Shown piece by piece: positions 91-2,147 of a DNA stretch of 4,349 nt. This stretch comes from a virus (lineage: Duplodnaviria; Heunggongvirae; Uroviricota; Caudoviricetes), in the IMG/VR virus record IMGVR_UViG_2706794698_000006. One strand, written 5' to 3'. The notes beneath the pieces are model-generated. The model was not told the origin of the DNA. It made no database searches and was given only the letters and a program-made list of their open reading frames with translations. Position 1 is the stretch's first letter; each line of letters starts with the position of its first letter. A program made the translations under genes and the position numbers.

Positions 91-200
91 GTTTTAACGT
101 TACTAATAAATCGTGAAACAATCTCCTCATTTGTTAGTATTTTCGCCTGAGCACAGCAAGAGGTTAATATTGCAACCGTCATTAAAAATGGCTTTATCAC
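91..200 (-). pseudogene. 5' fragment of a putative lipoprotein gene, interrupted by IS1 after 36 codons
   Basis: Minus-strand GTG at 200..198 opens a frame reading (M)IKPFLMTVAILTSCCAQAKILTNEEIVSRFISNVKT, then crosses into IS1 at 90 and stops 6 codons later. Basic n-region (K), hydrophobic core PFLMTVAILTS and lipobox-like L-T-S-C. A 36-codon open frame in 67% AT sequence is unlikely by chance. Product not recognised. Confidence 0.4.
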
Positions 201-208
201 AAAACAAA

Positions 209-212
209 CTCC
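209..212 (-). promoter_or_regulatory. Shine-Dalgarno (GGAG) for the putative lipoprotein ORF
   Basis: Minus strand reads aatGGAGtttgttttGTG; GGAG lies 8 nt upstream of the GTG at 200..198. Confidence 0.35.
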
Positions 213-267
213 ATTGTTAGCATGTTACGCGATAATTTTGCCTCATCTTTCACCACAAAAAAAGAAC

Positions 268-2147
268 TCACCTTTTAAATGGAGAATACCCAACATCATG
301 GGTGATTTTCATAAAGGGATCGCCTGTTTTCGGCAAATCGATAACGCGCATTCCAGGCGGCGCGTTGTCAAACGTCACCTTAAGTTCGCTGCGGGTTGCC
401 GGTGAAGATGCAAGGCTTAACAGCTGATTCCTTTCCAGTGATACATTCGGGGTGTAGCGTTTATCGGGAGATAAATACCCATCACCACGTGGCATCTGCC
501 ATCCGGTCATGTCATAGACAAAATCATGGAACTGTTTGCCCCACTCGTCGAACTTATCATTCAGACCAAATCCACTGTTCAGTGCATCAGCCACAAAATT
601 TTTAACAAGCCAGGGATGTGCTTTTTCAAACTCCTGCGCCATCATGCCCAGTTCAAGCAATCCACCAATCAGACTGATCTTTCCGAGGCCCTTTAATTTC
701 AGCCCTGTTTTTCCTGCCGCCGTTGTCCATTGATTCTGGGCGACTGTTGCCGCACGAATACTTGCCACCGCCTTCACACCAATATACAGGGCAGAAACCG
801 TTGCTATTGTTTTTACTGCCTGTTCCCATCCCCCCATTGCTCTGACAACCTGATCAACCTCCTGCCAGACTTTTTTCACAACCGGACCGACCGTTTCCCA
901 GTTATCAATTATGAGATATGCACCACCGACGAGAAGCGCAATTAATCCCTTTGCCGGCGTCATATTCATCACGCTACCCATGATTTTTGTTATGCGTGTC
1001 AATGTGCCAATCGCCACGCCCATCGTCAGTAATGCCGCACCAGTTTTCGCGATGGTTTTTACGACCTCAGGATTTTCTCTGACAAACGTGCGCACTTCTT
1101 CCAGAAAAGGCTTCATCTCTTTTATGCCTTCATTGAGTGAAGGCAGGAAGGTTTCCCCCAGCGTGGAAGAAATCGCATTGATCTGGTTCTGCAGCAGCAA
1201 CAACTGATTTTCTGTCGTCGCGGCACGGGCGGCATATTCTTTCTGCATTGAGCCGCCATACTGCTGCGCATCCGCCACACGATTAAAGTTGGTTCGCAAC
1301 AAATCCAGATTCGTGAGCAGCGGCGCAATGGCCCCCAGGGATTCCTTCCCGAACAGCGCTTTCAGCACAGCAGCCTGTTTTTCTTTCGGCACTTTTGCCA
1401 GAGAATCCAGTACGTGCAGCATGGCCCCGCGGGCGTCTTTCTGCATATCCGCCGCCAGTTTTTTCGGGCTAATGCGCAACGAGCGGAGCACTTTTTTCTG
1501 CGATTTGGTGGCAGAATCCCTCGCTGTCAGCGACAACATAAAATTCTTTATCCCCGTCGCAGCAATTTCTGACTCCACCCCCATTCCGGCAATGGTTGCC
1601 CCCATTGCGGCAATCTCTCCGGAGGCCACACCCGCAACACTGCCTAAAGGGCCAATACGGGTCACAACATCAGAAATCTTTTTCGCACTTGCAGGACCGG
1701 TATTACCAAGATAGTTAATCTTATCCGCAAGCCCTGCCACCTCTCCCTGTGTCAGTTTAAAGGCAGTGCGCCACTGCGCCATCATCTGACCGGATTCTTC
1801 TGCCGTGGTGTCAAAGGCCACGCCCATCTTCACGGCATCGTCAGTAAACTGCATCAGCTCGTCACGGGCGATACCAGCCTGACCACCCGCCGCCACAATT
1901 TCGGCGATACCTTCCGCCGACATGGGCAGTTCTGTTGACAGGTCGCGCACCTGCTCCGTCATTGCCTTAAACGCTTCCGGCGTATCCAGACCATCCACCA
2001 CTTTCCGGACATCCGCCATTTTTGATTCAAGGGCAATGGCAGATTTGACCGGGAGCGCCAGCGCCCCCAGTACTGCGGTTCCGGCACCCGCTGCGCCCAG
2101 TAACAGGCTGGCAAACTCCTTTTTAAAACCTTTCAGCTGGCGCTGCA
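268..2147 (-). CDS. Phage tail tape measure protein, C-terminal 626 codons (N-terminus lies in the N-run)
   Basis: Continuous minus-strand frame from the N-run edge to TGA at 270..268. Translation (QRQLKGFKKEFASLLLGAAGAG...IAEIVAAGGQAGIARDELMQFTDDAVKMGVAFD...) has the Gly/Ala-rich and hydrophobic segments typical of tape measure proteins. It is a very long gene placed right after sheath and tube. The 749-aa ORF in the track is an artefact of reading through N. Confidence 0.85.

Follow-up and report, generated by a model that had tools for sequence, protein, structure and literature searches.

The window, by which we mean the whole stretch of 4,349 nucleotides of viral DNA that was analysed, reads along its minus strand from a tail sheath gene through a tube gene and a tape measure gene into a stretch of 34% GC with a lipoprotein-like open reading frame (ORF), and then into the end of an IS1 element. 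The sequences used for comparison include L001, the uninterrupted reference from E. coli FDAARGOS_944; L003 (AGRD01000060.1, 39.6 kb, GCA_000281815.1) and L004 (AKNC01000076.1, 18.8 kb, GCA_000268045.1), both retrieved by the exact sequence of the 43-aa ORF that spans the IS1 junction; L005, an IMG/VR contig of 4498 nt without Ns; and L007, an IMG/VR contig of 61.7 kb. The features of the window are as follows.

1–90, minus strand: terminal part (last 90 bases) of IS1, the remainder of which lies beyond the left end of the window
68–90, within the IS1 part: IS1 inverted-repeat end, GGTGATGCTGCCAACTTACTGAT
69–200, minus strand: chimeric ORF of 43 aa, made of 37 native codons, 6 IS1 codons (VMLPTY) and a stop
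91–99: one copy of the target-site duplication, GTTTTAACG on the plus strand and CGTTAAAAC on the gene strand
91–200, minus strand: 5′ fragment (codons 1–37) of a 160-aa, moron-like gene, with a GTG start at 198–200
201–267, minus strand: AT-rich spacer (67 nt, 34% GC) that separates the tape measure stop from the start of the moron-like gene
268–2147, minus strand: visible part of the tape measure gene (PF10145, PhageMin_Tail, E 1e-44)
2148–2400: run of 253 N that replaces 473 nt (coordinates against L001, L003 and L005)
2401–2417, minus strand: start of the tail assembly chaperone gene (MAMNV...), overlapping the stop codon of the tube gene
2417–2773, minus strand: tail tube gene, 118 aa (PF10618, Tail_tube, E 1e-33)
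2773–4269, minus strand: tail sheath gene, 498 aa (PF04984, PF17482 and PF17481 sheath domains)
4289–4349: end of IS600 (IS3 family), continuing past the right end of the window; the boundary, set where homology to L001 ends (4288), is uncertain by about 10 bases (4280–4289)

The 473 nt behind the N-run comprise the 5′-most 70 nt of the tape measure gene, a spacer of 84 nt and the greater part of a 111-aa tail assembly chaperone gene, the homologue of which in L003 gives a weak match to PF10109 (Phage_TAC_7). The complete tape measure protein has 649 aa, as read from the unmasked twin contig L005 and also from L001 and L003. An earlier note on this DNA, made from the letters alone, described a tape measure stop at 268 followed by an AT-rich spacer and IS1, and all of these are present: the gene ends on the minus strand with a TGA at 268–270, the GC content of positions 91–267 is 34.5%, against 52% in the tape measure gene and 53% in the tube and sheath genes, and 90 bases of IS1 follow.

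Both ends of the window fall inside insertion sequences. L005 matches positions 61–4338 at 100% identity, beginning 30 nt inside the same IS1 end and finishing inside the same IS600 element, and the window is therefore essentially a whole short-read draft contig, with IS1 at its left and IS600 at its right. The IS600 element severs the DUF2635 gene and everything upstream of it in the window; its counterpart in L003 (4440–5702) is 99.5% identical to elements annotated as "IS3-like element IS600 family transposase". Since IS1 and IS600 are multi-copy repeats, and short-read assemblies break within such repeats, the window is a contig of 4.35 kb whose left end lies 90 bases inside IS1.

We observed that positions 1–2147, including the IS1 junction, are 100% identical to L003 and L004, and that positions 1–90 are 100% identical to the full 768-bp IS1 copies in L003 (10111–10878, with repeat ends at both coordinates) and L004. 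IS1 elements are about 768 bp long, have imperfect terminal inverted repeats of about 23 bp and usually generate a 9-bp target-site duplication. The inverted-repeat sequences of IS1 used as queries matched exactly, and a PF03400 (DDE_Tnp_IS1) transposase gene lies inside the element in L003 and L004, outside the window. Furthermore, CGTTAAAAC flanks IS1 at both ends in L003, L004 and L007. Excising IS1 together with 9 bases in silico gave back the L001 sequence over 533 bases without a mismatch, whereas taking out 8 or 10 did not. The insertion point is codon 37 of the 160-aa gene. Among the complete E. coli genomes of the collection the IS1 junction was absent, and the best matches begin at position 91 of the window. 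Scans of a genome-contig collection for the junction gave no match, and the viral contigs yielded the twin L005 but no sibling of the same IMG taxon. In L004, two tandem IS1 copies with 8 bp between them occupy this site, so that the locus differs among strains; the pair may be real or may be an assembly artefact. As in other Shigella IS1 insertions, we find a 768-bp element with canonical inverted repeats, a 9-bp duplication and a PF03400 transposase, a gene is interrupted and draft contigs break at the element; apart from the tandem pair in L004 there is nothing unusual here. The event is ordinary IS activity in a Shigella prophage remnant.

Could the distal tail genes have been lost from this prophage? 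The earlier note had pointed out that baseplate genes, which would be expected after the tape measure gene, do not follow it. This holds inside the window; in the read-through assemblies, they follow directly on the same strand. Three assemblies (L003, L004 and L007), in which the junction is 100% identical to that of the window, read through IS1 and are colinear beyond it. In L003, the far side of IS1 carries, on the same strand, the remaining 123 codons of the 160-aa gene and then an intact gene for a 463-aa DNA-circularisation protein (PF07157), followed by a gpP-like baseplate gene, homologues of Mu Gp45, GP46, baseplate J and Gp48, and tail fibre genes. After excision of the IS1 copies in silico, the 160-aa protein and the DNA-circularisation protein are each 100% identical to those of L001, and the identities of the proteins of the colinear genes further on are 99.7% for gpP, 98.9% for gpV, 93% for GP46, 99.7% for baseplate J and 99.5% for Gp48. 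One gene of the fibre region differs from L001 in its C-terminal half, with 59% identity. Similarly, L007 carries both junctions and the same downstream genes.

The other side of the insertion is also found as a contig of its own. LXUY01000327.1, a sibling contig of 4441 nt from S. sonnei drafts that occurs in 8 samples, starts in the opposite IS1 end and continues with CGTTAAAAC, the rest of the moron-like gene, DNA_circ_N, gpP, Gp45, GP46 and the N-terminal part of baseplate J, where it terminates at a second IS1 with the duplication GGGGGCGCA. This second copy, which lies in baseplate J, has GGGGGCGCA on both sides. The earlier note had taken intact baseplate genes directly past IS1, in the same orientation, as the observation that would speak for a simple insertion rather than for loss or rearrangement, and such genes are found in L003, L004, L007 and the sibling contigs. 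At the level of sequence comparison, then, the distal tail genes are neither lost nor moved at the IS1 junction. The assembly to which the window belongs stops in IS1, and for that genome the far side is deduced from the identical junctions in the other assemblies. The apparent absence of baseplate genes arises because the window stops inside a multi-copy IS1.

The synteny comparison that the earlier note had proposed places the 160-aa gene as a variable insert: E100341, phiP27 and SfIV lack it and are otherwise colinear. The Mu-type tail order in L003, L001 and L002 is PF04984, PF10618, PF10109, PF10145, PF07157, GpP-like, PF06890, PF07409, Baseplate_J and PF10076, from which the 160-aa gene is the sole departure in these three sequences; the intact relatives have the tape measure gene, then the 160-aa gene, DNA circularisation and baseplate. 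Temperate phages of the phiP27/SfV/SfIV type, which have a lambdoid genome and a Mu-type contractile tail, show the same succession of genes as this lineage: P27-family small terminase, HK97-type head, sheath, tube, chaperone, tape measure and DNA circularisation, followed by Mu gp44-48-like baseplate genes. In phiP27, which is 92% identical to the flanks of the cassette, and in SfIV, the DNA-circularisation gene stands directly after the tape measure gene, whereas this lineage has the 160-aa gene between them. SfIV has been classed with SfI, SfII, SfV, phiP27, cdtI and ST64B (PMC3851460).

The cassette that holds the 160-aa gene is about 580 nt long and has 34–40% GC compared with 48–59% in the flanking genes, i.e., 15–20 points lower. 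The gene, with a Shine-Dalgarno sequence (GGAG) 8 nt upstream of its GTG, is intact at 483 nt in FDAARGOS_944, which is 99.9% identical to the window (STEC309, 97%), and directly after its stop there is a terminator-like hairpin with a T-run, AAGCCGCCAGAAATTGGCGGTTTTTTTAT (L001 14622–14600, minus strand; a consensus match only). It occurs in 11 of the 5426 complete E. coli genomes. The cassette, of which the spacer at 201–267 is a part, is missing from the colinear E. coli E100341, in which the genes for the tape measure and for DNA circularisation are 15 nt apart; phiP27, SfIV and many close relatives in E. coli with the same flanking genes lack it likewise. A moron is extra DNA found in some related phages, with deviating GC, its own terminator and its own promoter active in the repressed prophage (PMC3594210). 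By the measures of that paper, the 160-aa gene shows the presence/absence pattern, the GC difference and the terminator; a simple consensus scan of L001 14400–15400 returned no sigma-70-like site for a promoter of its own. With its low GC, terminator and patchy presence as a cassette, the 160-aa gene looks like a moron. Of the two possibilities that the earlier note had offered, the first, in which IS1 landed in a moron that separates the tape measure gene from the baseplate genes, is supported by the GC content, the Shine-Dalgarno sequence, the hairpin, the patchy presence and the 9-bp duplication.

The other possibility, a degraded prophage in which the distal tail genes are lost or displaced, is not supported on its main point. 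In L003, IS600 stands in place of the capsid, connector, terminator and DUF2635 genes, from a prohead-protease remnant to the sheath gene; beyond it lie an IS4-family element and chromosomal genes, and the second IS1 splits baseplate J. Judged by its sequence, the prophage is thus degraded, with head genes deleted and baseplate J interrupted; the distal genes are colinear beyond IS1. Compared with phiP27, SfV and SfIV, the prophage here is defective, with its head genes deleted and with IS1, IS600 and IS4 insertions. We also considered whether a head-less remnant might work as a tailocin and rejected this idea: baseplate J is split by the second IS1, and IS600 cuts the operon upstream.

What does the interrupted gene encode? 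The 160-aa protein gives a full-length match to phrog_5586, a PHROG without a named function, at E 1e-88; searches of Pfam, NCBIfam and PADLOC returned no match for it, and a sequence search of the PDB gave nothing better than E = 0.2. The members of the family are 24–74% identical over the aligned members. Homologues with 44–74% identity along their whole length occupy this slot in Yersinia and in one metagenome prophage, and a 5′-truncated copy is present there in three more cases, one each from a read-run assembly, a metagenome scaffold and an NCBI genome. In all contexts looked up (Yersinia enterocolitica, an NCBI genome, a read-run assembly and two metagenomes), the gene lies between the tape measure and DNA-circularisation genes.

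The N-terminus carries an export signal. The ORF starts MIKPFLMTVAILTSCC and fits a lipoprotein signal pattern with Cys15: MIKPFLMTVAILTS-C15, with a basic residue near the N-terminus, agrees with [LVI][ASTVI][GAS]C, a PS51257-style lipobox pattern. The signals of the homologues are mostly of the Sec type (e.g., ...LNSFA|KP), and the more distant P0022 also fits the lipobox pattern; the Yersinia homologue as called starts MMLISCC, so that a Cys pair is present and the lipobox pattern is not fitted. Two cysteines are conserved in the family. These features fit the pattern of an exported lipoprotein, and the product is a candidate for one, with lipid modification and an envelope location predicted.

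A structure model built from 8 sequences was unusable (pLDDT 41), and an alignment of 14 sequences gave a model with a pLDDT of 83, in which the product is predicted to fold as an 8-stranded beta-barrel of about 145 aa. The fold search matched it to generic 8-stranded barrels, namely MoaF-like 4q51 (8.1), the Tp0751 lipoprotein 5jk2 (7.4) and the Cap15 barrel (6.9), followed by avidins (about 6.5) and PliC/MliC (about 6); the viral structure library held no match at an E of 1e-3 or better. The identity of the calycin-like barrels (MoaF-like 4q51, Tp0751 5jk2, avidins and PliC/MliC) to the moron-like product is at most 10%, and the modelled similarity is to a very common fold and assigns no function. 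A Pfam MliC match together with the conserved lysozyme-binding loop, as expected of a PliC/MliC member, was not found in the 160-aa protein. Three repeat-matching proteins (883, 2363 and 1823 aa) were judged uninformative, as the profile matched only at positions 40–111; one of the two that were scanned is a cadherin/Ig-repeat protein.

Known morons such as HK97 gene 15 and lambda bor (PMC3594210) are likewise extra genes in a tail operon, with deviating GC, a terminator and an envelope-targeted product. The 160-aa protein is unrelated in sequence to gp15, Bor, Cor and Llp, and the HK97 gene 15/lambda bor type is a small membrane peptide, whereas the product here is predicted to be a beta-barrel of about 145 aa.

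Taken together, these results are best explained, with a probability that we put at roughly 90%, by a defective phiP27/SfV-type prophage of S. sonnei in which IS1 has simply inserted into a moron, with the baseplate genes directly beyond it. The lineage would be of the phiP27/SfV type, with an HK97-like head and a Mu-type contractile tail, and its host would be Shigella sonnei. The minus-strand operon would have run from the sheath, tube, chaperone and tape measure genes through the 160-aa moron to the DNA-circularisation, baseplate and fibre genes. A 768-bp IS1 transposed into codon 37 of the moron, producing the 9-bp target duplication, and the rest of the moron and the DNA-circularisation and baseplate genes adjoin the far side of IS1, which in drafts appears as the 4.4-kb sibling contig. 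Given the general behaviour of IS1, the insertion is likely to have a polar effect on the tail genes behind it. The remnant is probably silent, because the head and late-promoter side has been lost too.

It is very unlikely that, in the window's own genome, this IS1 is instead a rearrangement breakpoint from which the baseplate genes were deleted or inverted away by IS1 recombination. The window does end inside IS1, an extra IS1 copy stands at this site in L004, and next to IS600 this prophage has lost its head side by deletion; IS elements abound in Shigella genomes and are reported to raise non-homologous recombination (PMC8072062). Nevertheless, all three read-through assemblies with the identical junction are simply colinear, sibling contigs that carry the opposite junction turn up repeatedly among S. 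sonnei drafts (one of them in 8 samples), and a perfect 9-bp duplication is what an insertion without later rearrangement leaves behind. Hardly credible is the view that the 43-aa ORF, the small lipoprotein-like ORF of the earlier note, is a real gene for a short lipoprotein that happens to end close to IS1. Its frame is open and has a lipobox, and it is annotated as a protein in S. sonnei records, the exact 43-aa sequence being a hypothetical protein of Shigella sonnei 3226-85. The ORF and its lipobox thus exist, but they do not make a gene of their own: the last 6 codons and the stop are IS1 sequence, codons 1–37 agree fully with the beginning of the 160-aa gene, which is restored exactly by IS1 excision, and no uninterrupted relative was seen with a natural stop near codon 43. 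What remains is the start of the 160-aa gene, truncated by IS1.

The nature of the 160-aa gene itself could also be read differently, as a regular, dispensable component of the tail module (e.g., an assembly factor) and not a moron. Related prophages of E. coli, Yersinia and metagenomes do keep it in the same slot, and the consensus scan gave it no promoter of its own. We nevertheless consider this quite unlikely: the N-terminal export signals (lipobox or Sec-type) and the two conserved cysteines point to a product that leaves the cytoplasm, many close relatives in E. coli with the same flanks lack the gene, as do phiP27 and SfIV, and it lies 15–20 GC points under its neighbours with a terminator-like hairpin after its stop. 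Phage tails assemble in the cytoplasm, and a protein exported by its signals would therefore not be a tail component. Returning to the moron reading, we infer that the product is an outer-envelope lipoprotein made by the lysogen, with a lysogenic-conversion or exclusion-type function, and that it has been destroyed by IS1 here.

The locus carries a caution: a gene block that is missing at the edge of a window in a multi-copy IS reflects an assembly boundary and not biology. As for the product, the phrog_5586 beta-barrel lipoprotein, which has its fixed slot in a subset of phiP27/SfV-type prophages, could be an envelope protein of lysogenic conversion, for example, one that blocks superinfection at the outer membrane or in the periplasm or inhibits an enzyme of the host or of a competitor, a suggestion that we regard as tentative and more doubtful than not. 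The family is rare, exported and found in the same slot of the tail operon, which makes it a mildly interesting candidate for phage exclusion and envelope phenotypes. If the reading as an envelope lysogenic-conversion protein is true, the IS1 insertion that inactivated it in S. sonnei would add a further step to the decay of this prophage.

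The Shigella sonnei contig L003 (AGRD01000060.1), which reads past the IS1 copy interrupting the 160-aa moron gene (the first IS1), carries another copy of this element further along the tail genes.

L003 15285-16052, opposite orientation to the first IS1: second IS1, same sequence as the first

This copy splits the baseplate J gene, with a 9-bp duplication (GGGGGCGCA). Together, the first and second IS1 form an inverted pair enclosing 4.4 kb of tail genes, a segment that could flip by recombination. Furthermore, we observed two directly oriented IS1 copies at the site of the first IS1 in the contig L004 (GCA_000268045.1; 4881-6424). 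Between them lie 8 bp (TACATCGG), their sequences differ at two bases, and the duplication CGTTAAAAC is retained at the outer flanks of the pair. This pair may be a genuine tandem dimer, or it may be an artefact of assembly.

The other end of the tail genes is bounded by a different element.

Window about 4280-4349, L003 4440-5702: IS600 copy, joined to DNA 19 nt ahead of the sheath gene's start codon

At the right end of the window, this copy cuts the DUF2635 gene short. L003 lacks the entire head module, which would lie between the sheath gene and what remains of a prohead-protease gene; an IS4-family element and the chromosomal genes bamD, rluD and yfiH follow.

Comparison with the unmasked twin contig L005, with L003 and with the E. 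coli FDAARGOS_944 locus (L001) shows that the 253 N at window 2148-2400 stand for 473 nt, the length of which was not kept.

L005 2088-2560: masked 473 nt, comprising the start of the tape measure gene, a spacer of 84 nt and the greater part of the gene for a 111-aa tail assembly chaperone

The 749-aa ORF drawn through the N-run in the ORF list is an artefact.

As called in the S. sonnei contigs, the gpP-like gene (L003 12695-13771) encodes 358-362 aa and has a changed C-terminal end, compared with 351 aa in L001. Similarly, the GP46 call (L003 14468-14698) is 76 aa long in L003 and L004, compared with 136 aa in two further contigs, L014 and L015. Small frameshifts therefore vary among strains.

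Could the 160-aa family extend to much larger proteins? Its profile also matches P0018, P0021 and P0025 (883-2363 aa), in each of which 8-12 repeated stretches were matched, the best ones inside profile positions 40-111. In a Pfam scan of two of the three, P0021 proved to be a cadherin-like/Big_9 repeat protein, and P0018 gave no above-threshold match. The profile matches may reflect a common acidic, calcium-binding-like motif rather than homology.

L001 is a 99.9%-identical relative with an intact junction, and its sheath and portal genes each hold their own ISEc60 insertions. Just beyond the tail-fibre end of its prophage lie a methyltransferase gene and ipaHe, a type III effector gene that carries a frameshift (L001 4094-5735). 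Phages of this type may therefore carry effector cargo of the Shigella/EIEC kind.

In the same locus, the moron's hairpin lies within the late tail operon.

L001 14600-14622: terminator-like hairpin of the moron, 18 nt ahead of the DNA-circularisation start codon

Given this position, cassette-bearing phages would need terminator read-through, for example by late-gene antitermination, to express their baseplate genes.
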